Part shown: positions 1,051 to 50,689 of the stretch, in pieces
Position numbering within the stretch: the stretch's first letter is position 1
Layout: the number at the start of each line of letters is the position of its first letter
NCBI GenBank assembly: GCA_020510985.1
Contig: CM035843.1
Coordinates: forward strand, 157,251,922 to 157,315,921
DNA length: 64,000 nucleotides
Direction of reading: 5' to 3'
Origin: Pholidichthys leucotaenia
Lineage: Eukaryota
Notes under the pieces: model-generated
The model's database searches: none
What the model saw: the letters and a program-made list of their open reading frames with translations, nothing else
What the model was told of the DNA's origin: nothing
Translations under genes and position numbers: made by a program

Positions 1051-1451
1051 ATAAATAAAGTTGAAAAAGACTTCAAAGTTTGGAGGAAAAAAGTTACAAA
1101 TTTATGAGGAGAAAAAAAATCACAAGTTTCTAAGGAAAAAGTTGAAATTCACAGTGCATCTAGAAAGTCTTCACAGCGCTTCACTTCTTCCACATTTTAT
1201 GTTGCAGCCTTATTCCAAAATGGATTAAATAATTTTTTTTTCCTCAAAATTCTACACACAATACCCCATAATGACAACGTGAAAAAAGTTTTTTAGATTT
1301 TTGCAAATTTATTAAAAATACAAAAACTAAGAAATCACATGTACATAAGTATTCACAGCCTTTGCCATGAAGCTCAAAATTGAGCTCAGGTGCATCCTGT
1401 TTCCACTGATCATCCTTGAGATGTTTCTAACCAAGCAGGAAGTCAAAGGAA

Positions 1452-1979
1452 TTGTCTGTAGACCTCCAGGACAGGATTGTCTCGAGGCACAAATCTGGGG
1501 AAGGGTACAGAAAAATTTGGGCTGCTTTGAAGGTCCCAATGAGCACAGCAGCCTCCATCATCTATAAATGGAAGAAGTTCAGAACCACCAGGACTCTTCC
1601 TAGAGCTGGCCAGCTGTCTAAACTGAGCGATCGGGGAAGAAGGGCCTTAGTCAGGGAGGTGACCAAGAACACGATGGTCATTCTGTCAGGGCTCCAGCGT
1701 TGCTCTGTGGAGAGCAGAGAACCTTCCAGAAGGACAACCATCTCTGCAGTAATCCACCAATCAGGCCTGTATGGTAGAGTGGCCAGATGGAAGTCACTAC
1801 TTAGTAAAAGGCACATGGCAGCCCGCCTGGAGTTTGCCAAAAGGTACCTGAAGGACTCGCAGACCATGAGAAACAAAATTCTCTGGTCTGATGAGACAAA
1901 GATTGAACTGTTTGGCCTGAATGCCAGGCATCATGTTTGGAGGAAACCATCCATCCATACATCATCTTCTTCCACTTAA
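1452..1979 (+). pseudogene. Tc1 transposase N-terminal (paired-like HTH) region, interrupted by SINE insertion
   Basis: '…SRHKSGEGYRKI…KWKKFRTTRTLPRAG…[16 protein letters not shown]' is about 80% identical to the minus-strand transposase ORFs at 4664-5245 and 7386-7967. Confidence 0.8.
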
Positions 1980-2170
1980 TCCTTTTCGGGTCGCGGGGGG
2001 CTGGATCCTATCCCAGCATCTTTGGGCGAGAGGCAGGGTACACCCTGGACAGATCGCCAGTCCATCACAGGGCCAACACAGAGAGACAGACAACCATTCA
2101 CTGTCACAGTCATACCTAAGGACAATTTAGAATCCCCAGTTTGATGCCAATTAACCTAACTTGCATGTTT
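1960..2170 (-). mobile_element. SINE fragment (3' body of the tRNA-derived SINE family whose head is seen at 62110-62345), nested in Tc1 element A
   Basis: Sequence '…atcccagcatctttgggcgagaggcagggtacaccctggacagatcgccagtccatcacagggccaacacagagagacagacaaccattcactg…ccaattaacctaacttgcatgtttttggcatgt' is near-identical to 36400-36640 and is the reverse complement of 11640-11770. Confidence 0.75.
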
Positions 2171-2899
2171 TTGGCATGTAGGCACCGCTCATCACCAGGC
2201 CAATACCATCCCTACAGTGAAGCATGGTGGTGGCAGCATCATGCTGTGAGTATGTTTTTCAGTGGCAGGAACTGGGAGACAAGTCAGGATAGAGGGAAAG
2301 ATGAATGCAGCAATGTACAGAGACATCCTGGATGAAAACCTGCTCCAGAGCGCTCTTGACCTCAGACTGGGGTGATGGTTCATCTTTCAGCAGGACAACA
2401 ACCCTAAGCACACAGCCAAGATATCAAAGGAGTGCCTTCAGGACATCTCTGTGAATGTCCTTGAGTGGCCCAGCCAGAGCCCAGACTTGAATCCAATTGA
2501 ACATCTCTGGAGAGATCTGAAAATGGCTGTGCAATGACACTTCCCATCCAACCTGATGGAGCTTGAGAGGAGCTGCAAAGAGGGATGGGCCAAGCTGCCC
2601 AAAGATAGGTGTGCCAAGCTTGTGGCATCATATTCAAAAAGACTTGAGACTGTAATTGCTGCCAAAAGTGCATCAACAAAGTACTGAGCAAAAGCTGTGA
2701 ATGCTTATGTACATGTGATTTCTTAGTTTTTTATTTTTAATAAATTTGCAAATATCTCAAAACTTTTTTCACATTGTCATTATGGGGTATTGTGTGTAGA
2801 ATTTTGAGGAAAGAAATGAATTTAATCCCTTTTGGAATGAGGCTGTAACATAACAAAATTTGAAAAAATGAAGTGTTGTGAAGACTTTCCGGATGCACT

Positions 2900-3130
2900 G
2901 TACTATAAAAAAAGTGACAAATTTGCTGGCGGGGGGAGGGTGTGTGGAGGAGTAGCAGATTTGTGTTGGAAAAAGACATAAATTTGTGTGAAAAAAAAAT
3001 TACAAATTTCTAAGAAAGAAGTTGAAAATGCATAAGAAAAAGTAGCAAATCTACCAAAAAAGTCACAGATGTACCAGGAAAAAAGTGAGTTCATGGAAAA
3101 AAAAATATAAAAAAAATCAAACGTGTCCAT
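2900..3130 (+). repeat. A-rich ~22-bp satellite array (monomer approx 'GAGGAAAAAGTCACAAATTTAT'), forward orientation
   Basis: Visible tandem units 'aaaaagacataaatttgtgtgaaaaaaaaattacaaatttctaagaaagaagttgaaaatgcataagaaaaagtagcaaatctacc'. Same family at 3660-4010, 5640-5830, 6380-6720, 8340-8450, 21120-22200, 24170-24560, 59300-60720 and, in reverse orientation, 25400-25700, 26580-26890, 57300-58420. Confidence 0.85.
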
Positions 3131-3635
3131 GTTGATTCCTCTCCACTTCTGTCCTCCTTTCTAGAGTCTAAAGTTGGACATGGGTGAGAAGGGCGGCATG
3201 GCTGAGTGTTCTGCTTCTTCTTCTGATGAGGACATGGGTTTTGGGCTTTTCGATGATGATGTAATAGCGACTCCAGCCAAGCGGTCTTCAGAGAGTGAGC
3301 GTTCCTTACCTTCACCAGTACCACAGAAACACGCTGAGGCCATCTTCCTCCGCAAAAGACCTCGTGCTGCCTTTTATCATCCTCTTTCCAAACTCAGAGG
3401 ACGCATCGGCCGCCCAACGAGACTTTCTACAAAGAAGAAAGATTTGCTTGACAAATGTGAAGATGACGATATGGAGTCTCTTGTCTTGCTTGGTAAAGAC
3501 GTCCTGCCGGAAGTCTCCCCTAGCTTGGACGACTCTGTAAAGGTCTGTGGAGATCAGCTGAGGAAGATCTGCAGTCTCCGTAGGATCATGGAGAGATGCT
3601 GCAGCACTGTTAGCGATTGGTGGTGTCGCTGCTGA
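3130..3635 (+). CDS. Exon-like ORF, family copy 1: conserved acceptor-like block then a 153-aa ORF starting with the acidic 'SSSDEDMGFGLFDDDV' motif (ribosomal P-stalk tail-like); host gene unknown
   Basis: 'ttgattcctctccacttctgtcctcctttctag|AGTCTAAAGTTGGACATGG…'. ORF at 3174-3635. Identical copy at 5894-6355; divergent paralogs at 8508 and 22385. Confidence 0.45.
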
Positions 3636-3659
3636 ATTTGCAGCTGCTTGATGGCACAG

Positions 3660-4010
3660 GCTAGGGCTGGGGGGGTGGGTAGCAGATTTATGAGGAAAAA
3701 GTGACAAATTTACAAGAAAAAGGAGCTAGATTCATGAGAGAAAAAAGTAGCAGATTTAAGAGGAGAAAGTCACAAATTTCTATGGAAAAAGTTAAAATTT
3801 GCCAAGAAAAAATTGACAATTTACCGGAAAAAAGTACCAGATTTTTGAGGAAAAGTCACAAATTCATGAGGAAAAAGTTACAAATTTTTAAGGAAAAAAT
3901 TAGAAATTTACTCGGGGGGGGTGACAAATTTACCAGGAAAAAACTAATTTGAGGCAAAAATTCAAATAGATTCATGAGAGGAAAGTTGCAAATTCAGGAG
4001 TAAAAATTCC
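3660..4010 (+). repeat. ~22-bp satellite array
   Basis: 'gtgacaaatttacaagaaaaaggagctagattcatgagagaaaaaagtagcagatttaagaggagaaagtcacaaatttctatgg…' tandem units. Confidence 0.85.
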
Positions 4011-5625
4011 CAAATGCAGTGCATCCAGAAAGTATTCAGTGCTTCACTTTTCCACATTTTGTTATGTTACAGCCTTATTCCAAAAGGGATTAAATTCATT
4101 TCTTTCCTCAAAATTCTACACACAATACCCCATAATGACAATGTGAAAAAAGTTTTGATTTTTTTCAAATTTATTAAAAATAAAAAAACTAAGAAATCAC
4201 ATGTACATAAGTATTCACAGCCTTTGCTCAGTACTTTGTTGATGCAGCTTCGACAGCAATTACAGCTTCAAGTCTTTTAGAATATGATGCCACAAGTCTG
4301 GCACACCTATCTTTGGGCAGTTTTGCACATTCCTCTTTGCAGCACCTTTCAAACTCCATCAGGTTGGATGGGAAGCGTCGGTGCACAGCCATCTTCAGAT
4401 CTCTCCAGAGATGTTCAATTGGATTCAAGTCTGGGTCTGGCTGGGCCACTCAAGAACATTCACAGAGTTGTCCTGAAGTCACTCCTTTGATATCTTGGCT
4501 GTGTGCTTAGGGTCGTTGTCCTGCTGAAAGATGAACTGTCGCCCCAGTTGAGGTCCAGAGTGCTCTGGAGCAGGTTTTTATCCAGGATGTCTCTGTACAT
4601 TGCTGCATTCATCTTTCCCTCTATCCTGACTTGTCTCCCAGTTCCTGCCGTTGAAAAACATCCTCATAGCATGATGCCGCCACCACCATTGGCCTGGTAA
4701 TGAGCGGTGCCTGGTTTCCTCCAAACATGACGCCTGGCATTCATGCCAAAGAGTTCAATCGTTGTCTCATCAGACCAGAGAATTTTGTTTCTCATGGTCT
4801 GAGAGTCCTTCAGGTGCCTTTTGACAAATTCTAGATGGGCTGCTATGTGCATTTTACTAAGTAGTGACTTGCATCTGGCCACTCTACCATACAGGCCTGA
4901 TTGGTGGATTGCTGCAGAGATGGTTGTCCTTCTGGAAGGTTCTCCTCTGTCCACAGAGGAATGCTGGAGCTCTGACAGAGTGACCATCGGGTTCTTGGTC
5001 AGCTCCCTGACTAAGGTCCTTCTCCCCCGATCGATCAGTTTAGACAGCCGGCCAGCTCTAGGAAGAGTCCTGGTGGTTCTGAACTTCTTCCATTTATGGA
5101 TGATGGAGGCCACTGTGCTCATTGGGACCTTCAAAGCAGCAGAAATTTTTCTGTACCCTTCCCCAGATTTGTGCCTCGAGACAACCCTGTCCTGGAGGTT
5201 GACAGACAGTTCCTTTGACTTCATGCTTGCTTTGTGTTCTGACATGCACTGTCAACTCTGGGACCTTGTATAGACAGGTGTGTACCTTTCCAAATCATGT
5301 CCAATCAACTGAATTTACCACAGGTGGACTCCAATTAAGCTGTAGAAACATCTCAAGGATGATCAGTGGAAACAGGATGCACCTGAGCTCAGTTTTGAGC
5401 TTCATGGCAAAGGCTGTGAATACTTATGTACATGTGATTTCTTAGTTTTTTATTTTTAATAAATTTGCAAATATCTCAAAACTTTTTTCACATTGTCATT
5501 ATGGGGTATTGTGTGTAGAATTTTGAGGAAAGAAATGAATTTAATCCCTTTTGGAATGAGGCTGTAACATAACAAAATTTGAAAAAATGAAGTGTTGTGA
5601 AGACTTTCCGGATGCACTGTACTAT
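4010..5625 (-). mobile_element. Tc1/mariner element (family 1), minus orientation, full-length with both TIRs; transposase about 1018 nt but split by frameshift(s)
   Basis: TIRs at 4010-4230 and 5400-5625 ('cagtgcatccagaaagtattcagtgcttcac' … 'gtgaagactttccggatgcactgtac'). ORFs 4664-5245 (N-terminal 193 aa) and 4228-4449 (C-terminal '[15 protein letters not shown]…'). Confidence 0.85.
4664..5245 (-). pseudogene. Tc1 transposase N-terminal and central region (193 aa); C-terminal DDE part continues in another frame at 4228-4449
   Basis: 'MSEHKASMKSKELSVNLQDRVVSRHKSGEGYRKISAALKVPMSTVASIIHKWKKFRTTRTLPRAG…KILWSDETTIELFGMNARRHVWRKPG'. There is a frame break between 4449 and 4664. Confidence 0.8.
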
Positions 5626-5639
5626 AAAAAAAGTGACAA

Positions 5640-5830
5640 ATTTGCTGGCGGGGGGAGGGGTGTGTGGAGGAGTAGCAGATTTGTGTTGGAAAAAGACACA
5701 AAATTGTGTGAAAAAAAATTTACAAATTTCTAAGAAAGAAGTTGAAAATGCATAAGAAAAAGTAGCAAATCTACCAAAAAAGTCACAGATGTACCAGGAA
5801 AAAAGTGAGTTCATGGAAAAAAAAAAATAA
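5640..5830 (+). repeat. ~22-bp satellite array (duplicate of 2900-3130)
   Basis: Identical to 2920-3110. Confidence 0.85.
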
Positions 5831-5849
5831 AAAAAATCAAACGTGTCCA

Positions 5850-6355
5850 TGTTGATTCCTCTCCACTTCTGTCCTCCTTTCTAGAGTCTAAAGTTGGACA
5901 TGGGTGAGAAGGGCGGCATGGCTGAGTGTTCTGCTTCTTCTTCTGATGAGGACATGGGTTTTGGGCTTTTCGATGATGATGTAATAGCGACTCCAGCCAA
6001 GCGGTCTTCAGAGAGTGAGCGTTCCTTACCTTCACCAGTACCACAGAAACACGCTGAGGCCATCTTCCTCCGCAAAAGACCTCGTGCTGCCTTTTATCAT
6101 CCTCTTTCCAAACTCAGAGGACGCATCGGCCGCCCAACGAGACTTTCTACAAAGAAGAAAGATTTGCTTGACAAATGTGAAGATGACGATATGGAGTCTC
6201 TTGTCTTGCTTGGTAAAGACGTCCTGCCGGAAGTCTCCCCTAGCTTGGACGACTCTGTAAAGGTCTGTGGAGATCAGCTGAGGAAGATCTGCAGTCTCCG
6301 TAGGATCATGGAGAGATGCTGCAGCACTGTTAGCGATTGGTGGTGTCGCTGCTGA
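5850..6355 (+). CDS. Exon-like ORF, family copy 2 (identical to copy 1)
   Basis: ORF at 5894-6355 has the same 153 aa as 3174-3635, with the same upstream polypyrimidine-CTAG block. Confidence 0.45.
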
Positions 6356-6379
6356 ATTTGCAGCTGCTTGATGGCACAG

Positions 6380-6720
6380 GCTAGGGCTGGGGGGGTGGGT
6401 AGCAGATTTATGAGGAAAAAGTGACAAATTTACAAGAAAAAGGAGCTAGATTCATGAGAGAAAAAAGTAGCAGATTTAAGAGGAGAAAGTCACAAATTTC
6501 TATGGAAAAAGTTAAAATTTGCCAAGAAAAAATTGACAATTTACCGGAAAAAAGTACCAGATTTTTGAGGAAAAGTCACAAATTCATGAGGAAAAAGTTA
6601 CAAATTTTTAAGGAAAAAATTAGAAATTTACTCGGGGGGGTGACAAATTTACCAGGAAAAAACTAATTTGAGGCAAAAATTCAGATAGATTCATGAGAGG
6701 AAAAGTTGCAAATTCAGGAG
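6380..6720 (+). repeat. ~22-bp satellite array (duplicate of 3660-4010)
   Basis: Near-identical sequence. Confidence 0.85.
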
Positions 6721-6731
6721 TAAAAATTCCC

Positions 6732-8340
6732 AAATGCAGTGCATCCAGAAAGTATTCAGTGCTTCACTTTTCCACATTTTGTTATGTTACAGCCTTATTC
6801 CAAAAGGGATTAAATTCATTTCTTTCCTCAAAATTCTACACACAATACCCCATAATGACAATGTGAAAAAAGTTTTGATTTTTTTTTCACATTTATTAAA
6901 AATAAAAAAACTAAGAAATCACATGTACATAAGTATTCACAGCCTTTGCTCAGTACTTTGTTGATGCAGCTTCGACAGCAATTACAGCTTCAGGTCTTTT
7001 AGAATATGATGCCACAAGTCTGGCACACCTATCTTTGGGCAGTTTTGCACATTCCTCTTTGCAGCACCTTTCAAACTCCATCAGGTTGGATGGGAAGCGT
7101 CGGTGCACAGCCATCTTCAGATCTCTCCAGAGATGTTCAATTGGATTCAAGTCTGGGTCTGGCTGGGCCACTCAAGAACATTCACAGAGTTGTCCTGAAG
7201 TCACTCCTTTGATATCTTGGCTGTGTGCTTAGGGTCGTTGTCCTGCTGAAAGATGAACTGTCACCCCAGTTGAGGTCCAGAGTGCTCTGGAGCAGGTTTT
7301 TATCCAGGATGTCTCTGTACATTGCTGCATTCATCTTTCCCTCTATCCTGACTTGTCTCCCAGTTCCTGCCGTTGAAAAACATCCTCATAGCATGATGCC
7401 GCCACCACCATTGGCCTGGTAATGAGCGGTGCCTGGTTTCCTCCAAACATGATGCCTGGCATTCATGCCAAAGAGTTCAATCGTTGTCTCATCAGACCAG
7501 AGAATTTTGTTTCTCATGGTCTGAGAGTCCTTCAGGTGCCTTTTGACAAATTCTAGATGGGCTGCTATGTGCATTTTACTAAGTAGTGACTTGCATCTGG
7601 CCACTCTACCATACAGGCCTGATTGGTGGATTGCTGCAGAGATGGTTGTCCTTCTGGAAGGTTCTCCTCTGTCCACAGAGGAATGCTGGAGCTCTGACAG
7701 AGTGACCATCGGGTTCTTGGTCAGCTCCCTGACTAAGGTCCTTCTCCCCCGATCGATCAGTTTAGACAGCCGGCCAGCTCTAGGAAGAGTCCTGGTGGTT
7801 CTGAACTTCTTCCATTTATGGATGATGGAGGCCACTGTGCTCATTGGGACCTTCAAAGCAGCAGAAATTTTTCTGTACCCTTCCCCAGATTTGTGCCTCG
7901 AGACAACCCTGTCCTGGAGGTTGACAGACAGTTCCTTTGACTTCATGCTTGCTTTGTGTTCTGACATGCACTGTCAACTCTGGGACCTTGTATAGACAGG
8001 TGTGTACCTTTCCAAATCATGTCCAATCAACTGAATTTACCACAGGTGGACTCCAATTAAGCTGTAGAAACATCTCAAGGATGATCAGTGGAAACAGGAT
8101 GCACCTGAGCTCAGTTTTGAGCTTCATGGCAAAGGCTGTGAATACTTATGTGCATGTAATTTCTTAGTTTTTTACTTTTAATAAATTTACAAAAATCTCA
8201 AAAAAAAAACTTTTCCTGGCATCATTATGGGGTATTGTGTGTAGAAGTTTGAGGAAAGAAATGAATTTATTCTATTTTGGAATAAGGCTGTAACATAACA
8301 AAATGTGGAAAAAGTGAAGGGCTGTGAATAGTTTCTAGAT
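6732..8340 (-). mobile_element. Tc1/mariner element (family 1), minus orientation; duplicate of 4010-5625 with a more diverged outer TIR
   Basis: ORF at 7386-7967 is identical to 4664-5245 except R to H. TIR at about 8100-8330 is diverged. Confidence 0.85.
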
Positions 8341-8450
8341 ACACTGTATATGGAAGGAAAAGACAAATTAATGGGGGGAAAAATTCAAATTTACAAGAAA
8401 AATCATTGCAAATTTATGAGAAAATGTAAGTTTATAAAAAAAAAATCCAA
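8340..8450 (+). repeat. ~22-bp satellite (short array)
   Basis: 'ggaaggaaaagacaaattaatggggggaaaaattcaaatttacaagaaaaatcattgcaaatttatgagaaaatg'. Confidence 0.7.
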
Positions 8451-8454
8451 GTGT

Positions 8455-8760
8455 CCATGGTGATTCCTCTCCACTTCTGTCCTCCTTTCTAGAGTCAAAA
8501 ATTTGACATGATTCAGAAGCGCCACGTGGCTGAGAGTTCTGCTTCTTCTGATGAAGACATGGTCTTTGGATCTCTCAGCGATGATGTAATGGCAATTCCA
8601 GTTGAGCCTTCTTCAGTTAGGGAGCATTTTTCATCTTTTTTTTCCTTTTTTTTATTAATCAAGAAAATTTACATTAAAATCTCAAAAACTCCCATTACAA
8701 GCCAGGCACTCATACAAGCAATGCAAAAACAGTGGCAGCATAAGATAAGGAAAAATAAAT
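8455..8760 (+). CDS. Exon-like ORF, family copy 3 (divergent): 'SSASSDEDMVFGSLSDDVMAIPVEPSSV…' then decays into A/T-rich low complexity
   Basis: Same conserved upstream block 'tggtgattcctctccacttctgtcctcctttctagagtcaaaaatttgacATG'. ORF at 8508-8762. Confidence 0.35.
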
Positions 8761-11639
8761 AAAAGTGGGAATCTTCTTCCCCAATTTATAAAGAAACAAA
8801 TAAGTATAAATAGCAATCTAAACAAACATGTCACATTCTTGCAAGATTTGACATGTTTTTATAGCTTTCTGGTTGCTTGAACCAATAATAATTTTAACAT
8901 AAGTATTAAAATCTAGTGTAAACATTTTAAATTAAGGTTTACTGCTAAATTTACATTTATGAAAAAAAAATTACTATAAAAAAGGAGTAAATTCAGATTA
9001 TAGAAAAAAAATCTCTCTGTGTACCAATATTATCTGTATAACCAAATATGACATTTTCCAAACAAAGTTATAATGTAAACTAATTCTGTTGTCTGTATGT
9101 TGGCACAGATCTGAGCAGAAAACTTTCACATCAACACTTTTCCAAACAAATGGCAGAAGTCGTCTGGATATAGACCACAACATGAATACAGAATATCAGC
9201 ATCACAGTTCAATCCTGTTAAATACACTTTGGTCAGATAATATCTATGAATTATTTTAAGTGATATTTCTTTAACTTTTTTTCTTAAAATAAACTTGTTA
9301 AACAAAGCCCAGATTTGATACTCCAGAAATAAACTGCAGGGGGATTAGATGTGACCTCCCTTTGAAACAAGGCTTTAGCATGTTTATTTGTTCTTAAATT
9401 GGGAGGAAAACTAACTTTTCCACCACAGTATGAGAAGCTTCCAGACAGGGTTCTCTATCTGATAAATGTGATCTGGTTCTGAAAAGCCTGCTTAGCCCGT
9501 CAGGGATCGCATTCTTAACAAGATGGAATTCTCTAACTGAGCAGGAAAAGTTGAAGGTAGACACAAATTCTTCACACAACATACCATTTAAATTAAATAA
9601 TTGTCTAACTGTCAACATCTTATTATCAAACCAAGTTTTATAAAATAAGGATTTATTTTTATAAGTTATATTGTGGTTATTTCAAATAAAATAGTAATGG
9701 GAGAAAGTTTGTGTTTGTTATGAGAGACCAGGATAATAACAACTGTTTGTGAAATTGGGATAGTTTGACAGGAAGGTTTTCTAGTTTGTATGGACACAAT
9801 AACAGGAATTTTAAACCACCCACTTGAGAAAAAATATGTTCAGGAATAGGGGTGGGCGATATGGCCTAAAAATGATATTACGATATTTCTGTGAATTTTC
9901 ACGATAATAATATTCTTCACAATATTAAGGAATACAGTTTCTTCTTTTAAATTTATAAAGGACAGTTTCACAGGCCAGCATTAATTATGTTCAACATATT
10001 CAGTAAAACCAAAAACTCTTACTTCTCCAGTTTATAAAGAGCAGTTTAGAATGTGTTTGAAACTTTTTTGGATTCTGTATCAAATAATACCAGAAAATAT
10101 TATAAACCACCACATCTTAAGCGCACTGAGGGGTGGACTGGGACAAAGATTCAGGCCGGGAATTTGACTTCATCCTAGGCCACCCTGTTGTTGGAAACCA
10201 GAAACCACCACAGTTTTAGTAGGTTAATATTTTAAAATAACAGGTATCAAACTAGTGATAAATGTAATTATAGCCTTCAGCTTGGAGGAAAATTATAAAT
10301 TTGGATTTTAATAGTCAACTGATCTATTGATTATTAAAACAACTGATTAATCTTAATTTTAATCTGGTGCTGCTTCTGATTTCTTCACCTTTTCTGAATA
10401 AAAACACAAGGTCAGAGACTTTAGGTAAAAAGTTACAATTGTGCATGAAAAAGGTCACAAATTTGTCACCAAAAACATTCAAAATTTTAAAAAAATGTAC
10501 CTTCATGAAAAGATGTTTAAAAAAATGAGAAAATAAAACAAATTTAGGAGAGAACGGTAACAAGCAGATGACTAAAGTTGGTACTGCAGACTACATATAG
10601 CCTGTAGTTTTGAAAATTATAAAGTCTTTTCTTAAAACATCTGAATAGTCCTGAAAACATAAATGTAAGAGCAGTTTAGTTATGGTTAATGCAACCTATT
10701 TATTACATTAAAAACTTTAACCCTAAACTACAGTATAAGCAGCTGCAGCACCCTTGTATAACCACAGACACTCATTCACCACATTACTTCTGTCTTCACC
10801 TCATTTCTATGCTCTGGGGCATGAGGGGGTTTTGGTCATTTTAACATATTAAATTAATTTAGTATGTTATTTCACCGGGTCAGGAAGAGGGTCTAAATAA
10901 AACAGGAAGGAAGTGGGCTTATTTAAAAGTATTATTTCATCATTTGGCCTACCTGTCTGCCGTTTCCCCAACCAAGACACTTCTGCAGGTAAATGACCGC
11001 CGCGTCAGACCTCCCATCTCTCTCTCTTTCTCCGTTTACCCACGTTAGAAATCTCCGTTGCACAGACAGCTCCTGGGGCTGTTAACAGATTTTTATTTTT
11101 TTTTTCATTTGCTTGGCTGAATGAATCAATCTGGAGCAGCCACAAGGGAATGCAAATAAACCTCTGGACACTTCGGAGTCCGGACGTCAACAGCACTTCT
11201 TCAGGGTGAAGTAAAGCTTTTCACTGAAGCCGTGTTATTGACGTGCGGAAAAAAATGCGGGCAGATTATCCACATCACTCCACCACATTTTTTTAAGAAG
11301 GCAGCAGTCTGAAACGGCCTTAAAACTAAATAACTTCCTCACAACTAGACGCAGACGTTCCAAGCACAGAGCACCGCTTCTCACGCCATGTTTGGTTTGT
11401 CGTTTCTATGGTAATGCGTAACTTCCGTTGGCAGCATAACGGACCCCAAATATTGCGATATTCATTTTCACACCAGTATCAGAAATTATACCGGTATTAT
11501 CGTGAATGATACAACATGGCACACCCCAATCAGGGATACTATTCCAGATTGACGCAGAGTTCTGCTGGAACCATTTTATCCAGTTAATTTTAAAGGTATT
11601 ATTAAGAGTCTCAAAATCTGAAATATTTAACCCAGGTGT

Positions 11640-11820
11640 GACTGTGAGAGTGAATGGTTGTCTGTCTCTCTGTGTTGGCCCTGCGATGGACTGGCGATCT
11701 GTCCAGGGTGAACCCTGCCTCTCGCCCTAAGATGCTGGGATAGGCTCCAGCCCCCCCGCAACCCGAAAAGGATTAAGCGAAAGAAGATGAATGAGTGAAC
11801 GAATGAATATTGTAGCTGTT
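11640..11820 (+). mobile_element. SINE 3' fragment (same family as 62110-62345; tail '…ccccgcaacccgaaaaggattaagcg')
   Basis: Forward-orientation match to the reverse complement of 1975-2110 and 36420-36560. Confidence 0.7.
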
Positions 11821-15717: not shown

Positions 15718-16343
15718 CTGGGGGGGGGGGGGGGTGTGCTCAAAATACAAAAGGTGGTAGAGCACTGATAAATAAACAGTATGGGATGAAAAAATTTCAA
15801 CTTCACTTCGTGACTGAAACATTTGTCACCACGGGCGCCATCTTGGCCTCCTCCTTTTTCATCCGTTTTTCATCTTCTGCTCCACCTCCACCACCAGAAC
15901 CACAGAAACACGCTGAGGCCATCTTCGACAAAGGATCTCCCAAAATCGTGCACTTGTGGCCGACACACATTGTGGGCTCACGTTGCCACAGAGACAGGAC
16001 TGCATGTGTATTGTGGGGTGTCACGTCTGCAAGGACAGAGGACTCGAATCTGCAGAAGATAACAAGGAAGTGTGAGATTTGTCTCTTTGTCCCACAGAAG
16101 ATGCCCCGGAGAGAATTCCGGTTCATCAGGAAATGAGAGACAATAGGTGAAGCTTCAAAGGGATGCTTTGTAACTGTATGTTTACTGAAGACACCATGTG
16201 ACTTGAATCCTGATGCTGGAAACGTATAAAAGGGTGTTGAGATATGATTCTTTCTCTTTCCTGCTTTGAGAATGCTAGAAGCTGTGTTCTATCAAATAAA
16301 GCTGGTTTATGACTAAACTCAGCCTCGTCATTTGAGCACATCT
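15718..16343 (+). repeat. 5' LTR (starts TG…, ends …CA; contains TATA box and AATAAA)
   Basis: 15794-16343 is identical to 20494-21043. 'tataaaag' at 16225-16232; 'aataaa' at 16295-16300. Confidence 0.8.
16225..16232 (+). promoter_or_regulatory. LTR TATA box (tataaaag); second copy at 20925-20932
   Basis: Canonical TATA in the U3/R region about 70 bp upstream of AATAAA. Confidence 0.5.
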
Positions 16344-16369
16344 TCTACACTGGTGACCTACGACGGAAA

Positions 16370-17134
16370 ATGAGCAGACAGAATTCTCCCGAGCAGGGCT
16401 CGGCGGAAGCCATCCTGATGGCCGCCTCCACGATCCGGCTGCCCGATTTCTGGCAGCACAGCCCGCGCTCATGGTTTAGTGCAGTCGAGGCGCAGTTCAA
16501 CCTCCGGAGAATCTCCAACGACGACACAAGATTCTACCACATGGTAGCGAAGCTGGACAGCGACACGGTCCAGAGAGTGGAGGATCTGGTTAACCATCCA
16601 CCAGACAGCGACAAGTACAGCGCATTGAAAGACGCGCTGATCAGCCATTTCACCCCCTCAGTCCAACAACGAGCAGAGGGGCTCCTGGCGCTGACGGAGG
16701 CAGAAAACGATAGACCTGCGGACCTGATGGTGAAGATGCTGCAGCTCAAAGCCTCTGAGGACGGCGAATTCATTTTCACCCACCTTTTCCTCCGAACCCT
16801 ACCACCAGCAGTGAGAGTGGCCCTGGCAGAGTTGCCCCGATTGGCCAGGCGAGACTACCATGGGTTGAGTAAGGAGGCGCAGCGGTTGGTCGACGCCCAC
16901 AAGCGGAACGCGGTTTCGGCCGCGGCGGCCAGTCCGGGAACGGCGTCCGGAGACAGCGCAGGTCCAGCGGCTGCGGCGCCAGACGCACCAACGGCGGCGG
17001 CGATGGGAGCCAGACGACGCAGAGCGGAGGACGGCCCGTGCTTCTACCACCGCCGTTTTGCAGAGAGAGCGCACAGGTGCGTCCCACCGTGCAACTTTAA
17101 GCGCCAGGGAAACGCCAAGACCGAGGGCCGGTAG
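16370..17134 (+). CDS. BEL/Pao gag (254 aa)
   Basis: 'MSRQNSPEQG…LPDFWQHSPRSWFSAVEAQFNLRRISNDDTRFYHMVAKLDSDTVQRV…' has DUF1759-like retrotransposon gag architecture. TAG stop at 17132-17134. Confidence 0.75.
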   Translation: MSRQNSPEQGSAEAILMAASTIRLPDFWQHSPRSWFSAVEAQFNLRRISNDDTRFYHMVAKLDSDTVQRVEDLVNHPPDSDKYSALKDALISHFTPSVQQRAEGLLALTEAENDRPADLMVKMLQLKASEDGEFIFTHLFLRTLPPAVRVALAELPRLARRDYHGLSKEAQRLVDAHKRNAVSAAAASPGTASGDSAGPAAAAPDAPTAAAMGARRRRAEDGPCFYHRRFAERAHRCVPPCNFKRQGNAKTEGR

Positions 17135-20100
17135 CAGCCGCGACCCTCGGCAACGAGAACAGGCTGCTTTACCTGACGGATGCACGCTCGGGGAAACAGT
17201 TCCTCGTGGACACGGGCTCTCAGCTGAGCTTCATCACACCCACCTACGCGGAACGGCTGTCGCCTTCTAAAGCCCCCTGGGTGTCAGTGTCAGCAGCGAA
17301 CGGCTCCACGATTAAAACGTTCGGTGAGAGGACCATGCTTCTGTCCTTACAGGGCCGTTCATTTGAGTGGACATTTATTGTAGCAGCAGTCAGTTTCAAC
17401 ATGTTAGGGGCTGATTTTTTGTGCTCACATGGTTTATTGGTTGACCTTGCTAATAGACGTCTGGTTAATGCACTGTCCTTTCATTCTATTCCCTGCACAG
17501 CTCGGGTGGCCCCGCCAACTGCACATGCCAGCGTCTCAGCTGCGGGTGGTAAGTTTCACACTTTGCTTGCTCAGTTTCCAGCACTCACAGTCCCCACGTT
17601 TTCGGCAACGGTGGCCAAACATGGGGTAGAACATTTCATAACAACCACAGGCCCTCCCGTTTTTGCAAAAGCTCGGCGCTTGGACCCAGCTAAACTGGCC
17701 ATCGCGCGCGAGGAGTTCACTAATCTGGAAAAACTGGGCATTGTTAGACGCTCCAAGAGCCCTTGGGCTTCGCCGTTACACATGGTCCCAAAGGCTGACG
17801 GCTCGTGGCGTCCTTGCGGCGATTTCCACAGGTTGAACAACGTTTCAGCTCATGACCGCTACCCGATTCCGCACATTCAGGATTTTTCTGTTCATTTGGC
17901 AGGGGCGCGCATTTTTTCTAAAATAGACTTGGTGCGCGGCTACCACCAGGTTCCAGTGCGCGCGCAGGATGTACCCAAAACAGCGGTCATAACTCCTTTC
18001 GGCCTTTTTGAGTTTTTGCGCATGCCTTTTGGCCTCAAGGGGGCCGCGCAGACTTTCCAACGCATGATGGATGCAGTTTTACGCGACCTGCCTTTCGTGT
18101 TCGTTTATTTGGACGATATTTTGGTAGCCAGCGCGTCCGAAGGCGAACATGAAAAACACCTCACAGCAGTTTTCCGGAGGCTGGCAGAGCACGGGTTAAT
18201 AGTTAACCCAGCGAAGTGCCAGTTTGGGGTGGCGCAGATTGATTTTTTGGGACATCGCGTTTCGGCAGAAGGAGCGGTTCCCCTTCCAAATAAAGTGCGT
18301 GCCATAACGGATTTTCCGCAACCTCAAACGGTCAAGGCGCTTCAGGAGTTTCTAGGGATGGTTAATTTTTACAACCGATTCCTCCCAAGCGCAGCACGAC
18401 TCATGCAGCCATTGTACACCGCGTTAAAAAAACAAAAGCCCGCAAATAAAGTTGAATGGTCTCCGGAGCGGGAGCGCGCTTTTGCCCAGGTCAAATCAGC
18501 CCTGGCAAACGCAGTTTTATTAGCGCACCCAGTTCCAACGGCCCGCATGGCGCTCACCACTGACGCTTCCGATGTAGCGGTGGGGGCGGTAGTTGAACAG
18601 TTTGTGGCAGGTACCTGGCAACCCCTCGCGTTTTTCAGCAGGACTTTGTGCGATAGTGAACGGAAATACAGCGCGTTTGACAGGGAGCTTGTGGCCCTAC
18701 ACTTGGCCATCCGTCATTTTCAGTTCTGGTTAGAGGGGCGACGTTTCACCGCTTTTGTGGATCATAAACCGCTAACGTTTGCGATGGCCAAAATTTCAGA
18801 ACCCTGGTCAGGCCGGCAACAAAGGCAACTAGCCGCAATATCGGAGTTCACTACTGATATTCAGCATGTCGCGGGTAAACACAATGTTGTGGCAGACTGC
18901 CTCTCGCGTGCAGTAGCACCGCCAAGCCCCATAGGGGCAGACTCTGTAGCCATGGCCGCGGGCCCGGGCAGCGACGCGGGAGCGCGCGCAGCCCCGGTCT
19001 GTGTTGGGTTAGATTATGCAGCCATGGCTGCGGAGCAGGTTAACGACGCGGACGTGCGTGCGCTCCAGTCTGGACCAACAGGGTTAAGGCTGGAGCACAG
19101 GGTGCAACAAAACGGTATGCCCCCACTAATCTGCGATGTCTCCACGGGATGGCCCCGCCCCGTGGTGCCAGCCGCGTGGCGTCGCCGCGTTTTTGACTTG
19201 GTCCATTCTCTCGCACACCCGGGGGTGCGCGCATCGATCAAATTGGTGGGGGAGAAATTTGTTTGGCCCGGGTTGCGCAAACAGGTCAAGGAATGGGCGG
19301 CAGCCTGCGTAGCGTGTCAGCGAGCCAAAATACACAGACACACTAAGGCCCCGTTAGAACCTTTTCACATCCCCGCTAAGCGTTTTGATCATGTGCATGT
19401 TGATTTGGTCGGTCCGCTTCCGTTATCACACGGGCACACACATCTTTTGACGATGGTAGATCGCACCACGCGCTGGCCAGAGGCGATTCCTCTGACATCA
19501 GCCACAGCGGAAGAAGTTGCGCGAGCATTTTTAGCAGCGTGGGTTGCGCATTTTGGTGTACCGTCGGACATAACGTCCTACAGGGGTCCCCAATTTATTT
19601 CCGAGCTATGGTCATCGATGGCCCGCAGCTTGGGGGTGAAGATTCATCGCACCACCGCGTATAACCCCCAGGCTAATGGTTTATGCGAACGCTTTCATAG
19701 GTCATTGAAGGCAGCCCTCAGAGCGTCGCTAACGGATACAAATTGGGTGGACAAACTTCCATGGGTTTTATTGGGGTTGCGTTCTGCACCTAAGGAAGAT
19801 TTGCATGCTTCCCCGGCTGAATTAGTTTTTGCACAACCGCTGCGTTTGCCGGGGGAATTTCTTCCCGATAATCCCGCACCTAATGGCCCCCCTGCTCAGC
19901 CGTGGCAGAGCGGCTCAGGAGCAAACACGCTCCCTGGCCCAGTCCATCACAGTTTCCCACACGTTTTTGTGCCAAAGGCTTTAAAAAATGCAGAGTTTGT
20001 TTTTGTTAAACATGATGCTCAGCGTCCAAGTTTGTGGCCGTTTTACGACGGACCGTTTCGAGTGCTGGAGACCGGGCAGAAGCATTTTCTGCTAGATTTA

Positions 20101-20343
20101 GGGGGCAGAAGGGAGCTGATTTGCATAAACAGGCTCAAACCCGCTTTTGTTCTGGCTGACGAGGAGGTGCAGCTCGCGAGGCCCCCCCGCCGTGGCAGGC
20201 CGCCGAGAGGACATTCTCCAAAGTCTTCACAGAAAGGTGCTAACAGTTTTAATCCACAGCTGCAGAGAGATGTTGCAGGTGCAGCCAAACCAGGTTGCAG
20301 CAGATTCGGCAGAAGGTTAAAACCTAGGCAGTTGGTGGATTGA
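17101..20343 (+). CDS. BEL/Pao pol polyprotein (protease-RT-RNaseH-integrase). The ORF-track start at 17206 is a GTG; the true reading frame begins in the gag overlap
   Basis: DTG protease motif at about 17209; 'FVYLDDILVAS' RT; integrase zinc finger 'HSLAHPGV…CVACQRAK'; DDE core; C-terminus '…KHFLLDLGGRRELICINRLKPAFVLADEE…'. Confidence 0.8.
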   Translation, partial: APGKRQDRGPVAAATLGNENRLLYLTDARSGKQFLVDTGSQLSFITPTYAERLSPSKAPWVSVSAANGSTIKTFGERTMLLSLQGRSFEWTFIVAAVSFNMLGADFLCSHGLLVDLANRRLVNALSFHSIPCTARVAPPTAHASVSAAGGKFHTLLAQFPALTVPTFSATVAKHGVEHFITTTGPPVFAKARRLDPAKLAIAREEFTNLEKLGIVRRSKSPWASPLHMVPKADGSWRPCGDFHRLNNVSAHDRYPIPHIQDFSVHLAGARIFSKIDLVRGYHQVPVRAQDVPKTAVITPFGLFEFLRMPFGLKGAAQTFQRMMDAVLRDLPFVFVYLDDILVASASEGEHEKHLTAVFRRLAEHGLIVNPAKCQFGVAQIDFLGHRVSAEGAVPLPNKVRAITDFPQPQTVKALQEFLGMVNFYNRFLPSAARLMQPLYTALKKQKPANKVEWSPERERAFAQVKSALANAVLLAHPVPTARMALTTDASDVAVGAVVEQFVAGTWQPLAFFSRTLCDSERKYSAFDRELVALHLAIRHFQFWLEGRRFTAFVDHKPLTFAMAKISEPWSGRQQRQLAAISEFTTDIQHVAGKHNVVADCLSRAVAPPSPIGADSVAMAAGPGSDAGARAAPVCVGLDYAAMAAEQVNDADVRALQSGPTGLRLEHRVQQNGMPPLICDVSTGWPRPVVPAAWRRRVFDLVHSLAHPGVRASIKLVGEKFVWPGLRKQVKEWAAACVACQRAKIHRHTKAPLEPFHIPAKRFDHVHVDLVGPLPLSHGHTHLLTMVDRTTRWPEAIPLTSATAEEVARAFLAAWVAHFGVPSDITSYRGPQFISELWSSMARSLGVKIHRTTAYNPQANGLCERFHRSLKAALRASLTDTNWVDKLPWVLLGLRSAPKEDLHASPAELVFAQPLRLPGEFLPDNPAPNGPPAQPWQSGSGANTLPGPVHHSFPHVFVPKALKNAEFVFVKHDAQRPSLWPFYDGPFRVLETGQKHFLLDLGGRRELICINRLKPAFVLADEEVQLARPPRRGRPPRGHSPKSSQKGANSFNPQLQRDVAGAAKPGCSRFGRRLKPRQLVD
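17107..17113 (+). promoter_or_regulatory. Candidate -1 programmed ribosomal frameshift slippery heptamer G GGA AAC (X XXY YYZ) at the gag/pol overlap
   Basis: Gag reads GGA AAC. The pol frame (-1) opens at 17101 right after a TAA and reads continuously through 'GKRQDRGPVAAATLGNENRLLYLTDARSGKQFLVDTGS' into the 1045-aa ORF. Confidence 0.6.
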
Positions 20344-20406
20344 TTAGCAATGTATGGAGTGCTTTGTGTTTTTCTTTTTTTTTTTTGTTATGCCATGCAG
20401 GTTTTG

Positions 20407-34489: not shown

Positions 34490-37400
34490 AAACTAATAAG
34501 ATAAGATAAGATAAGCCTTTATTAGTCCCACAACGGGGAAATTCCAGGATTGCAACAGCACAGGGATAGCAACACTCAGAGCAACAATCAGAAGGCAAGA
34601 AAAAAAAAAACAAGCAAGCAAGAGCAGCTAATATACATATGTACATATTACTATAAAATATATATATACACACACAGACACACAGTGCAGAGCATTGTAG
34701 CTGGATGGAATAAATATATGAATATATGAATACTACTATAGTACTACTACTACTACTAATACTACTATAAAGCCTATGTACATCATAGCTTAATATATGA
34801 TGGCCCGTATAAACACATGAATCATATCCGCTGCACGATGCAGGACTATCAGAAGTAGAGTGAAATGTGAGGCACCAGTCAGACTGTAAGGTGCAATGTG
34901 GCAGCATAGTTATGAGCCGAATACAACATCATAGTGAGTTATTGTACAGTGAAATGGCATGCAGCAGGAAAGATTTCTTGTACCTGGTCATTTGGCAGCG
35001 AAGCTGTAGTAGTCTACTGGAGAAAGTGCTCTGCTGTGTGTCCAGTGTGTGATGGAGGGGGTGATCACAATTGTCCATGATGGATCGCAGTTTATTTAGT
35101 GTTCTTCTCTCCACCACCGTCTCAAAGATCTCCAGCCTGAGACCAATACAGAGCCAGCCCTCTTGATAATCTTGTCAAGTCTGTTGGTGTTGCTGGCTCT
35201 GATACTGCTACCCCAACAGACAGCAGCAAAGATGGCGCTGATGACAGTGGTGTTGTAGAAAAGCTCCAGCATCGTGCTGCACATGTTTAGGGATCTCAGC
35301 TTCCTCAGGAAGTAGAGTCTGCTCATCCCCTTCTTGTGCACAGCATTGGTCAGCATCCTCAACCACCCCACATCCTCCCCCCTAATCTGCAATGGCTGAG
35401 AAGGCGACCTCTTCTTCCTGAAGTCAATCACCATCTCTCTGGTCTTGCTGACATTCAGCCTCAGGTGATTCTGCTCTGTCCACTCCACAAATCTATCTAC
35501 CAGTGCCCTGTACTCTCCCTCCTCTCCCCCTCTTATACACCCCACAACAGCTGAGTCATCAGAGAATTTCTGCAGGTGGCACGACTCAGTGTTGTACTGA
35601 AAGTCAGTGGTGTATAAGATGAAGAGAAAAGAAGAGAGCACAGTCCCCTGTGGAGCTCCCGTATCACTAACCACCACGCCAGACAAGACACTGCCCAGCC
35701 AGTCAAACTGTGGCCTGCCTGTCGGGTAGTCAGTAATCCAGGCATCGATGGAGCGACCCCCATCACTCGCAGCTTCTCACCCAGCAGCAGTGGCTGGATG
35801 GTGTTAAAGGCACTGGAGAAATCAAAAAATGTGATTCTCACAGTGTCTCCTCCACCATCCAGTGCAGATGGGCTTGTTGCAGCAGGTAGATGACAGCATC
35901 TTCAATTCCTAAATGGGGCTGATATGCAATCTGCAGAGGGTCCAGCCACATCTTCACCTGCAGCCTCAGGTGGGCTAAGACCAGTCTCTCCAGGACCTTC
36001 ATCACATGAGATGTGAGGACAGCTGGTCGATAGTCATTCAGGTCTGATGGAGATGACTTCTTGGGGACAGGAACCAGGCAGGACGTCTTCCACAGCACCG
36101 GTACTCTCTCGAGACTCAAGCTCAAGTTGTACAAGTGTTTCAGTACCGGAGCTAGCTGGTTGGCACAGGTCCTCAGGATCCTGGCGGAGATGCCATCAGG
36201 GCCCGCCACCTTCCACTGACAGTCTCTCTCCAGCTGTTTCTTAACCTGGTCTGTAGTCACAGTGATGTGAGGGAGGGTCCTGGTGTCCCCCAAGGAGGAG
36301 GAGGGGGGTGGGGGGGGAGATGGAGAGAGGTGCTGCACAGGACGGTGGAGGGAGGGGTGTGTGAGGGTCTGGCTGTGTTGTAGGGGTGATGGACTATGAG
36401 GTCATTCATTCATTCATCTTCTTCCGCTTAATCCTTTTCGGGTCGCGGGGGGGCGGGGGGCTGGAGCCTATCCCAGCATCTTTGGGCGAGAGGCAAGGTA
36501 CACCCTGGACAGATCGCCAGTCCATCGCAGGGCCAACACAGAGAGACAGACAACCATTCACTCTCACAGTCATACCTAAGGACAATTTAGAATCCCCAGT
36601 TTGATGCCAATTAACCTAACTTGCATGTTTTTGGCATGTGGGAGGAAACCAGAGAAATGCCCAAGTAAACCCACGCAGACATGGGGAGAATATGCAAACT
36701 CCACACAGATCACTGTTGGTCGGGGGCTGGGAGTTGAACCTACTAAAAAACAGATTCAATTCATCAGACCTGGCTCTCAGATGGCTGCCTGACTCTCCCC
36801 TTGCACCCAGTTATTTGTTTCATTCCCTCCCACACATCTTTAGCGTTGTTTTGCCTGAGTTTATCCTCCAGCTTCCTCCTATAATTGTCCTTGCACCTCC
36901 TCAGCATCTCTCTCAGCTCATGCTGCACTCCCCTCAGCTTCTCCTTGTCTCCGGACCTAAAAGCTCTCTTCTTTTTGTTCAGAAGTGCTTTCAGGTCACT
37001 CGTGACCCATGGTCTGTTGTTAGAGAAGCAGTGTACAGTCTGTGCTGGCATGGTCGTGTCCTCACAGAATTTGATGTATTCTGTGATGCAGTCGGTCATA
37101 TTGTCTATGTCCACTCCATGTTGTTCACAGAGTACGCTCCAGTCTGTTGTCTCAAAGCAGTCCTGCAGTGCGTCAGCAGCCTCCCGTGTCCACCTCCTCA
37201 CCGTCCGTGTATAAGCAGACTGGCTTTGCACAAGGGGAATGTGCTTGGGTGACAATATGACCATGCAGTGATCCGATTTGCCAATGGGGGGTAGAGCTGT
37301 GGCACTATATACATCCCAATCCAGTGTTTTTTTTTTCTGGTGGAGCAGTCAACAAACTAGTGAAAGTTTGGTATTGTTTTTCCCAGTGAGACATGATTAA

Positions 37401-49875: not shown

Positions 49876-50689
49876 ACCCCTGTGACCCTGCCCTTGGAAA
49901 AAAGTTAAGACTCAGGATTTTTTTTTTTTTTTTTTGCTTTAACCCCTGGAGATAACCAAAGGTAGCATTAACAGTGGTAATTTTGCATATACAAAGAAAG
50001 AGAAATATTTACATATTTACAGGTTTTGCATGTGTGAAATAGAATAGAATCGGCTTTATTGTCATTGTACAGTACAACAGCTGTACATTGACAATAAGGC
50101 GATTCTATTCTCTTCTGTTTCACACAAATGAGGCTGAGATGTGATCATGTAGCTGAATGGCGAATTAGTGAGATGATAATGGTGACAAAAATTGAGTATA
50201 ATGCAAAACTAATGAAAAAGGAATTTTGATAAAGTGTTATAAAAAAAGAAAAAAAGATTAATTTTACATTATGCTCAAAAGAGAACGGTAGTTACAGCAA
50301 AGCTTATGGCTGAGGTGGATAGGAGTCTGTCCCTGAAACTGATGCTGTTGGCTGACTTACTTCCTTGGAGTGGCTTTGTTCACAAAAGATTCAGACCGAA
50401 ATGGAATAGAGCTGTCAAGCCTTATTTGGTCACAGGCCCTGGAGGATTGGGCTCCTGGTAGCCCGGCTTGGTCCAACCTGGGTTGGAGATAGGGCCTTGG
50501 CAGCACGAGTTGTCTCTGTGGTTCTGCACCCAGAGGTCTTGACCTGGGAATCTTCTCAGAAGGGAGAACCTGGCTTAGGGCCTGCAGCTTGGGTCTGCTT
50601 AGGTCTTCTTGGAACAATGGATTACCCACTCGGACAGCATTTGACGTTGCTCAGCCCAGAAGAAAGCTTTAATTCAATTCAATTCAATT

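Follow-up and report, generated by a model that had tools for sequence, protein, structure and literature searches.

Introduction

Tandem duplications can arise, as has been described, by non-allelic homologous recombination (NAHR) between paralogous copies of transposable elements (TEs), including their terminal inverted repeats (TIRs) and long terminal repeats (LTRs; PMC9659126). This study concerns a stretch of 64,000 nucleotides from the genome of Pholidichthys leucotaenia (assembly GCA_020510985.1, contig CM035843.1, positions 157,251,922 to 157,315,921 of the forward strand), hereafter referred to as the window, in which a 2.72-kb segment composed of a Tc1 transposon, two minisatellites and an exon-like open reading frame (ORF) is present twice in tandem. 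The segment was very probably duplicated in a single step, by unequal exchange between the end-repeats of two Tc1 elements.

The locus shares several features with TE-mediated NAHR, such as that occurring between Alu elements in primates: direct repeats bound the segment, the hybrid repeat contains a single in-register switch, and passenger sequences lie between the repeats. It differs in that the partners are the ~214-bp end-repeats of two oppositely oriented Tc1s, which are 84% identical, and in that the switch took place within 7 bp. A switch of 7 bp at 84% identity is at or below the homology usually deemed necessary for efficient NAHR. The short perfect identity at the switch and the simple head-to-tail duplication are reminiscent of fork stalling and template switching (FoSTeS) and of microhomology-mediated break-induced replication (MMBIR), but here the breakpoints are in register within a longer homeologous block, and neither templated insertions nor added complexity are observed. 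In maize, alternative transposition of Ac/Ds elements generates tandem direct duplications whose junctions are located at the transposon termini and carry target-site duplications. The duplication described here is also tandem, direct and bounded by copies of a DNA transposon, whereas its junction is located inside an end-repeat.

The Tc1 elements resemble the teleost Tc1/mariner elements of the Sleeping Beauty type, which have an inverted repeat/direct repeat (IR/DR) organization. They are ~1.6 kb long and possess end-repeats of ~213 bp, in each of which the AAGTATTCAC motif occurs twice, at an outer and at an inner position; a TA dinucleotide stands beside the right-hand end of Tc1 A, B and C; and HTH_SB, HTH_Tnp_Tc3_2 and a weak DDE_3 domain are found in a transposase that is 41-52% identical to SB10. 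They differ in that all three copies are pseudogenes, and in that one of them, Tc1 B, is a chimera of two elements.

Events of this kind are well known and ordinary, and the general picture is left unchanged by the present one, whose mechanism is resolved to 7 bp. The locus provides a base-resolved example of the way in which dead DNA transposons still reshape a genome: through their end-repeats, two Tc1s in opposite orientation offer ~214 bp of direct homology, which is enough to duplicate 2.7 kb. For assembly curation, a segment that is likely variable in copy number and a chimeric Tc1 can be flagged. Wider potential lies only in the unproven ORF with a ribosomal P-stalk motif that was carried along.

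Extent, composition and age of the tandem duplication

An initial annotation of the window had proposed a recent tandem duplication of 2 x 2.72 kb, with ORF pairs offset by 2719-2722 bp. Both the duplication and the offset were recovered. Self-BLAST aligned positions 2688-5625 to positions 5407-8351 over 2949 columns with 98.3% identity (E=0, 5160 bits), and a search for direct repeats returned spacings of 2719, 2720 and 2722 bp. In the base-by-base alignment, a near-identical block (2688-5429 with 5407-8151) is followed by a tail of ~85% identity (5430-5625 with 8152-8351). The two duplicates, both on the plus strand, are delimited at 2711-5429 (2719 bp) and 5430-8151 (2722 bp). Their period is 2719-2722 bp, and they are ~99.5% identical, with 9 substitutions and 4 indels, that is, only 13 differences in 2719 bp. 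The tandem duplication is real.

Each unit begins with the outer 190 bp of a Tc1 end-repeat, which are followed, in this order, by a degenerate minisatellite, an acceptor-like tract with the ORF, a 22-bp minisatellite array and a 1.6-kb Tc1 on the minus strand. Every part of the composite unit initially described (a Tc1, two satellite arrays and an exon with the P-stalk motif) was located in both copies. The degenerate minisatellite, with core AAAAGTNRCAAATTT, extends on the plus strand downstream of Tc1 A from ~2903 to ~3110, and its copy from ~5622 to ~5830. Five core-motif matches were found per copy, and Tandem Repeats Finder (TRF) called just two copies of a 20-bp unit (3037-3076). The exon-like ORF, on the plus strand at 3165-3635 (copy 1) and 5885-6355 (copy 2), comprises 156 codons after an acceptor-like sequence (...CCTCCTTTCTAG/AGT, the slash marking the boundary) and contains the peptide SDEDMGFGLFD. 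The two ORF copies are identical in nucleotide sequence (tblastn 100%), as is the slightly shorter span given by 3174-3635 and 5894-6355, and no difference between the duplicates was found in the base-by-base alignment across 3107-3913. The 22-bp minisatellite, also on the plus strand, has a higher-order period of 87 bp and was placed at 3660-4014 and 6380-6734 by motif matches and by TRF (3696-3911 and 6416-6631, 9.8 copies). This array is 74-79% identical to another array at 21739-22035. The ORF pairs had been described as identical at the amino-acid level, which is correct for the exon-like pair, whereas several pairs of satellite-spanning ORFs differ through indels.

With regard to the nature of the differences, all four indels are located within homopolymer runs, and three of the four transversions are shifts of the border between an A-run and a T-run. 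Two transitions (4541 and 4731) are CpG/TpG differences, which look like biological mutations rather than consensus errors. The event appears to be recent, as had been proposed, because the copies differ by 0.33% in substitutions while Tc1 A and Tc1 B/C differ by 7-8%. With K ~0.002-0.003 and an assumed vertebrate-type neutral rate of 1-5e-9 per site per year, the duplication would be roughly 0.2-1.7 Myr old. It would thus be far younger than the Tc1 insertions, given the 7-8% between A and B, or than the older exon paralogues, which differ by 18-26%. In two exact-pattern scans of metagenome contigs, locus-specific 29- and 33-mers found no match.

The junction within the Tc1 end-repeat

The junction was mapped by aligning the three right-hand end-repeats and scoring every site that differs between the first and the third. 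TIR1 (2688-2900) is the right terminal inverted repeat of Tc1 A, TIR2 (5407-5619) is the hybrid repeat at the duplication junction, and TIR3 (8129-8346) is the parental right end-repeat, the second recombination partner. TIR1 and TIR3 are in direct orientation and 84% identical. Up to 5422, TIR2 agrees with TIR3 and with the body side of the Tc1 wherever the sites are informative (22/22); between 5430 and 5649, it agrees throughout with TIR1 and its outside flank (47/47). The switch from one to the other occurs once, inside a 7-bp island of identity, CTTATGT (5423-5429), at a distance of 16-23 bp from the repeat's inner edge, and the outer 190 bp of the hybrid were donated by TIR1.

On the left, the switch is bounded by positions 2693 and 2703. 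The TIR1-specific bases at these positions are unlike those of all five other end-repeats and are therefore considered to be old mutations of Tc1 A that predate the event. They are not taken as changes acquired after the duplication, because, with 9 mutations per 2719 bp, it is very unlikely that two new ones would have fallen within 23 bp.

Perfect shared stretches of 25 bp (2777-2801), 20 bp and 16 bp lie farther out in the repeat, and the switch is in none of them. In the alignments, the junction contains no inserted or templated extra bases, and neither a new TA target duplication nor a footprint is found there. The switch overlaps the inner AAGTATTCACAG motif of the end-repeat; the position of this motif is that of the inner transposase-binding repeat in IR/DR elements, and the overlap is treated as incidental. 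As judged from the alignments, breakpoints at homologous positions of repeats that are just 84% alike are the signature of a homology-guided exchange.

The Tc1 elements

Tc1 A (1152-2900, plus strand) was delimited by tblastn with SB10, by Pfam and by its identity to the other two copies, and corresponds to the Tc1 in opposite orientation that had been noted ahead of the array at 1150-2900. It is 92-93% identical to the reverse complement of Tc1 B/C. Tc1 B (4017-5619, minus strand) is the chimera: its body and the inner 23 bp of its right repeat are parental, and the outer 190 bp come from Tc1 A. Tc1 C (6737-8346, minus strand) is the second copy of the body and retains the parental outer end-repeat.

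The transposase matches HTH_SB (2.3e-25) and HTH_Tnp_Tc3_2 (5e-15) above the Pfam cut-offs, and the match to DDE_3 is weak (3.3e-4, 21 bits, below the cut-off of 28.6 bits). With the SB10 transposase as tblastn query, amino acids 3-340 were covered at 41-61% identity. Tc1 A matches amino acids 3-171 and 173-340 of SB10 on the plus strand, with three in-frame stops, and has Pfam matches to both HTH_SB and HTH_Tnp_Tc3_2.

Tc1 A is disrupted by the three stops and by a 231-bp insertion; Tc1 B/C have a 21-bp in-frame deletion, two frameshifts and two to three stops. Given these lesions, all three copies are dead, and B/C are unable to encode a transposase. The insertion in Tc1 A is a repeat of ~231 bp (1950-2180) that appears as a gap in B/C relative to A. 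It belongs to an unclassified repeat of ~230 bp, resembling a short interspersed nuclear element (SINE) or a miniature inverted-repeat transposable element (MITE), of which three copies are present (1950-2180, 36403-36639 and 11634-11802) with 91-94% identity; it has no tRNA or Rfam match. A change from R to H had been reported as the only protein-level difference between the transposase frames of Tc1 B and C, and this is inaccurate: the frames differ at three codons, as an L to P change (4271/6993) and an R to stop change (4541/7263) are also present.

The arms of Tc1 B are inverted and 92.5% identical (4017-4227 and 5407-5619). Each end-repeat contains the motif AAGTATTCA(C/G) at ~13 nt and at ~195 nt from the element end, and the outer and inner motifs are assumed to be the transposase-binding repeats of the IR/DR type. 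On the right, Tc1 A and the parental Tc1 are each followed by a TA dinucleotide (2901-2902 and 8347-8348, respectively). On the left, the flanks read CA (1150-1151, Tc1 A) and TG (4015-4016), and a single transition would turn either of them into TA. A premature stop, a change from W, occurs at the same transposase codon (GGGSIML*) in Tc1 A (~2230) and in Tc1 B/C (~4660 and 7382). Both would therefore stem from a source lineage that was already inactivated and was mobilised in trans.

Proposed mechanism and alternative explanations

The recombination pathway is one that we infer from the structure of the product. The starting locus would have comprised, in this order, a minisatellite, Tc1 A (inverted), the exon-like ORF with a minisatellite on either side, the parental Tc1, and a short minisatellite with an older exon paralogue. 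Because any Tc1 reads from left repeat to right repeat either way, the right ends of oppositely oriented Tc1s are direct repeats. The exchange partners would have been the right end-repeat of Tc1 A (2688-2900) and that of the parental Tc1 (now 8129-8346), which before the event would have been direct repeats of ~214 bp, ~84% identical and 2.72 kb apart. Unequal exchange between them would duplicate all the sequence in between, R1-M-R2 becoming R1-M-R(2/1)-M-R2, with the boundary of the duplication at the inner edge of the repeat because homology is confined to the ~214-bp end-repeat. The exchange may have occurred between sister chromatids or between homologues, or it may have been a template switch during replication for which this homology served as the guide. 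Its product would be the hybrid repeat at 5407-5619 together with two copies of the outer repeat, satellite, ORF, satellite and Tc1 body. The ORF and the satellites would be passengers, and no transposase would be needed.

Unequal crossing-over between satellite/Tc1 repeats, rather than transposition, had been suggested by the initial annotation. The exchange between repeats is retained here, with the Tc1 end-repeats as partners and the switch at 5423-5429, whereas the assignment to satellites is not. The exclusion of transposition agrees with the dead Tc1s and with a junction that lies ~190 bp inside the repeat, away from the transposon terminus. A satellite-mediated crossover was considered as a candidate in its own right and was ruled out by the switch inside the Tc1 end-repeat; the satellites that adjoin the junction are co-linear copies.

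Several points weigh against this reading. The perfect identity at the switch amounts to just 7 bp, close to one margin of a 214-bp block that is 84% identical, and the longest shared stretch was bypassed. Classical meiotic NAHR usually uses longer perfect identity. The pathway may therefore have been homeologous recombination or microhomology-mediated template switching instead. In addition, the four indels and three of the four transversions at homopolymer borders may be consensus errors, in which case the true divergence may be nearer 0.2%, and the presence of two units in the genome, as well as their fixation, is extrapolated from the assembled sequence. Given that the switch used only 7 bp of identity and left the longest shared stretch of 25 bp unused, we have avoided the strict NAHR label and prefer to describe the event as what it appears to be from its junction, a homology-guided unequal exchange and not classical NAHR in the strict sense.

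A replication-based template switch of the FoSTeS/MMBIR type at CTTATGT would yield the same product as a meiotic unequal crossover, and we regard it as possible, although we hold it only tentatively. It would fit the island of identity, which lies between mismatches 16-23 bp from the edge of homology with stretches of 25, 20 and 16 bp bypassed, as well as partners that are only 84% identical. However, the breakpoints are exactly homologous in both repeats, which pure microhomology would not need, and the junction is free of inserted or templated bases. Template switching and homeologous recombination cannot be distinguished by sequence. That the duplication was driven by transposase, through aberrant or alternative transposition using the ends of two Tc1 copies, could be suspected from the two Tc1 elements flanking the duplicated segment and from the overlap of the switch with the inner AAGTATTCACAG motif, presumed to be the inner transposase-binding repeat. 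This explanation was rejected on account of the repeat-internal junction, ~190 bp inside the end-repeat and not at the terminus, the lack of a new TA target duplication or footprint at that junction, and the dead state of the local Tc1 copies, and its probability is close to nil.

An older origin of the array and an error of assembly were also considered. In the former case, an old tandem array of Tc1, satellite and exon would have had its first two units homogenised by gene conversion and the interior of Tc1 A flipped through its own end-repeats. The order repeat, satellite, acceptor and exon does recur after 8129, the premature stop at GGGSIML* is common to Tc1 A and B/C, both Tc1s are at equivalent TA sites of a 67-bp higher-order satellite unit, and the 60 bp before the acceptor are 93% identical between exon copies 1 and 3, near the identity of Tc1 A and B. 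Nevertheless, the diagnostic sites of the end-repeats are 3:0 in favour of Tc1 A having been inverted as a whole, while a flip through its own repeats would have kept the outer ends; the satellite flanks of the Tc1s, with scores of 39 and 50, resemble each other no better than random pieces of satellite do (control medians of 47 and 55); the exon (74%) and TIR1 versus TIR3 (84%) contrast with 93% for the Tc1 bodies; and a conversion tract would have to span exactly from repeat to repeat and yet leave a hybrid with a single switch. We consider this history unlikely. Even less likely, in our view, is an assembly artefact, in which only one unit is true, the other having arisen from a haplotype that was retained or from a mis-join induced by repeats, or in which more than two units were collapsed. 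A divergence of 0.2-0.33% between copies is within the range of allelic heterozygosity, and the position of all indels and of three of the four transversions at homopolymer borders is as expected for consensus errors; on the other hand, the differences of CpG type have the look of biological mutations. The junction and its surroundings are free of gaps and Ns, and the hybrid repeat is clean and in register. If a haplotype bubble had been linearised, its breaks would have to coincide by chance with homologous positions of two different repeats. A mis-join by overlap would require that 214 bp be accepted as overlapping at 84% identity. In a de Bruijn graph, a cycle would make its switch at the 25-mer common to both repeats (2777-2801) rather than at a 7-mer, and the resulting copies would be identical.

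Earlier history of the locus

Homology-guided exchange between the Tc1 end-repeats also bears on what follows the second copy. A third, older partial unit had been annotated there, made up of the outer TIR of Tc1 C, a short satellite and a divergent exon copy. The features listed are all present at 8129-8627, but their membership of the same array is not supported: the repeat at 8129-8346 is the parental Tc1's own outer end, which the exchange model requires, rather than what is left of a third unit. After 8346, 85 bp of minisatellite are followed by an older, decayed acceptor and exon-start paralogue, exon copy 3 (8434-8627); this whole plus-strand stretch (8349-8627) is outside the recent duplication. 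In the 60 bp before the AG, copy 3 is identical to copy 1 at 56/60 positions (93%; 3105-3164 versus 8434-8492). In the exon part, identity falls to 102/138 (74%), with 54% of amino acids identical over 46 residues and a ratio of nonsynonymous to synonymous substitution rates (dN/dS) of ~0.7 over 45 codons. After ~45 codons, copy 3 runs into unrelated AT-rich sequence.

Between the paralogues, the region upstream of the acceptor is better kept than the coding part (also at 22325-22369), which is odd for an exon. The conserved 60 bp before the acceptor could reflect splice-region constraint, local conversion or fast evolution of the peptide.

When the empty sites of both Tc1s were reconstructed, each could be aligned without a break at the point of insertion to the paralogous satellite array (21.8-21.9 kb), with scores of 78 and 76, against a shuffle maximum of 38. 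In this alignment to the array upstream of exon copy 4, both empty sites are equivalent TA sites of a 67-bp higher-order unit. Each Tc1 would therefore have inserted in a simple manner into a minisatellite that was already there. A history in which a non-autonomous lineage inserted twice, independently, into a pre-existing repeat of satellite and exon is favoured, with some confidence, over the duplication of an old unit; the 3:0 diagnostic sites and the satellite flanks argue modestly for such independent insertions. When the Tc1s and the recent duplication are removed, exon copies 1 and 3 are ~1 kb apart. An older tandem layer would therefore have preceded the Tc1-mediated one, and the exon family would have grown by local tandem duplication in at least two layers.

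The 22-bp minisatellite was the insertion target of both Tc1s, and every ORF-bearing segment is bordered by blocks of this minisatellite family.

The passenger ORF and its P-stalk motif

The proteins P0, P1 and P2 of the ribosomal stalk share a conserved C-terminal peptide, SD[D/E]DMGFGLFD (PMC3280276). The exon-like ORF resembles them in having the exact 11-residue sequence SDEDMGFGLFD (3222-3254 and 5942-5974), an 11/11 match to the conserved tail. It differs from them in that the peptide is internal (residues 20-30 of 156) rather than C-terminal, and in that the ORF has neither Pfam matches nor homologues. Specifically, no Pfam family was matched at E<=0.1, Ribosomal_60s included, and no homologue was found either in a word-indexed search of 5.8 billion proteins or in a full phmmer search of 1.84 billion representatives, in a database that does include fish proteomes. 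An exact-sequence look-up of ten ORFs of the window gave no match, and a single-sequence AlphaFold2 (AF2) model predicted no fold for the exon-like ORF (pLDDT, the predicted local distance difference test, of 44).

An acidic-hydrophobic motif is kept in all exon copies (DEDMGFGLFDDD, DEDMVFGSLSDD and DEDFGVISDDD). It is degenerate in the older paralogues, which read DEDMVFGSLSD (8493) and DEDFGVISDDD (22370). The fourth copy (22311-23827, plus strand) has the same acceptor motif and phase, with an ORF of 485 codons from 22370. All four copies have the acceptor motif, the phase and the acidic motif in common, which speaks in favour of a genuine coding exon. With a putative donor at 3543/3544, the exon of copy 1 would measure 379 nt, a length not divisible by 3, and a transcript with both duplicated copies would be shifted in frame. 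For the ORF of copy 4 (~480 aa), neither a Pfam match nor a homologue was found, in a word search that was possibly swamped by low-complexity candidates. This ORF contains a 27-bp tandem repeat of ~20 copies (22978-23536), which encodes FSFGAAPQS-like nonamers resembling FG repeats, and the strand opposite the repeat is open for 195 codons. To look for exons of a host gene, all plus-strand ORFs of 50 aa or more, taken from stop to stop, were compared with Pfam in the interval from 8.3 to 31.6 kb; the only match was a reverse transcriptase (RT) fragment of a long interspersed nuclear element (LINE).

None of the 9 substitutions between the duplicates is located in the ORF, where 1.6 would be expected, which is not significant. 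The difference-free stretch of 807 bp (3107-3913) is not significant either: such a largest gap among 13 differences has P ~0.14 by hand calculation, and it therefore provides no evidence for constraint or conversion. The ORF is a candidate exon whose exon status is unproven. It is very unlikely that it is a real, lineage-restricted exon whose product would be a P-stalk mimic, or a decoy for stalk-docking factors or toxins, with copies gained under selection. If it were so, the Tc1 repeats would merely have supplied the recombination substrate.

Other features of the window

The DNA of the window is eukaryotic, teleost-like and rich in repeats, with Sleeping Beauty-type Tc1 elements and LINE reverse-transcriptase fragments among its repeat content; the self-BLAST run showed no Ns anywhere. 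The 22-bp minisatellite family with core AAAAGTNRCAAATTT has 148 matches across the window, against 4.1 expected. Blocks of core-motif matches are located at 1089-1129, 2910-3072, 3697-3995, 10428-10464 and 21154-22012, and further blocks at 24170-24551, 25494-26882, 56964-58407, 59393-60707 and 62938-63210.

A near-intact LTR retrotransposon occupies 15786-21050, with LTRs at ~15786-16350 and 20485-21050 that are 99% identical across the 300-nt stretch compared. Its coding regions are a gag-like ORF and a pol of 1045 aa, the latter comprising RT, RNase H and integrase domains. Both LTRs hold ~60-75 bp that are homologous to the exon family (15866-15926 and 20566-20626 versus 3313-3347 and 22513-22556), and the LTR stretch is identical at 34/35 positions to the duplicated ORF at 3313-3347. 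Either host sequence was captured by the LTR or LTR sequence was borrowed by the exon family.

An inverted pair of ~1.05 kb (1-1042 versus 50687-51737), apparently the 3' part of a LINE, is 98.2% identical. Its ORF has no Pfam match, and the high identity would imply a very recent pair of insertions or a segmental copy. Across the whole window, no RNA genes were detected by Rfam at the gathering threshold or by ARAGORN. An intronless ORF of the Arf family is present on the plus strand at 58518-59189 (Pfam Arf, 3e-66). It is ~62% identical to canonical ARF1-type proteins and has an N-terminal extension of 55 aa, and it may be a retrogene or a divergent paralogue. This ORF is flanked by inverted minisatellite blocks, at 56964-58407 on the minus strand and at 59393-60707 on the plus strand.

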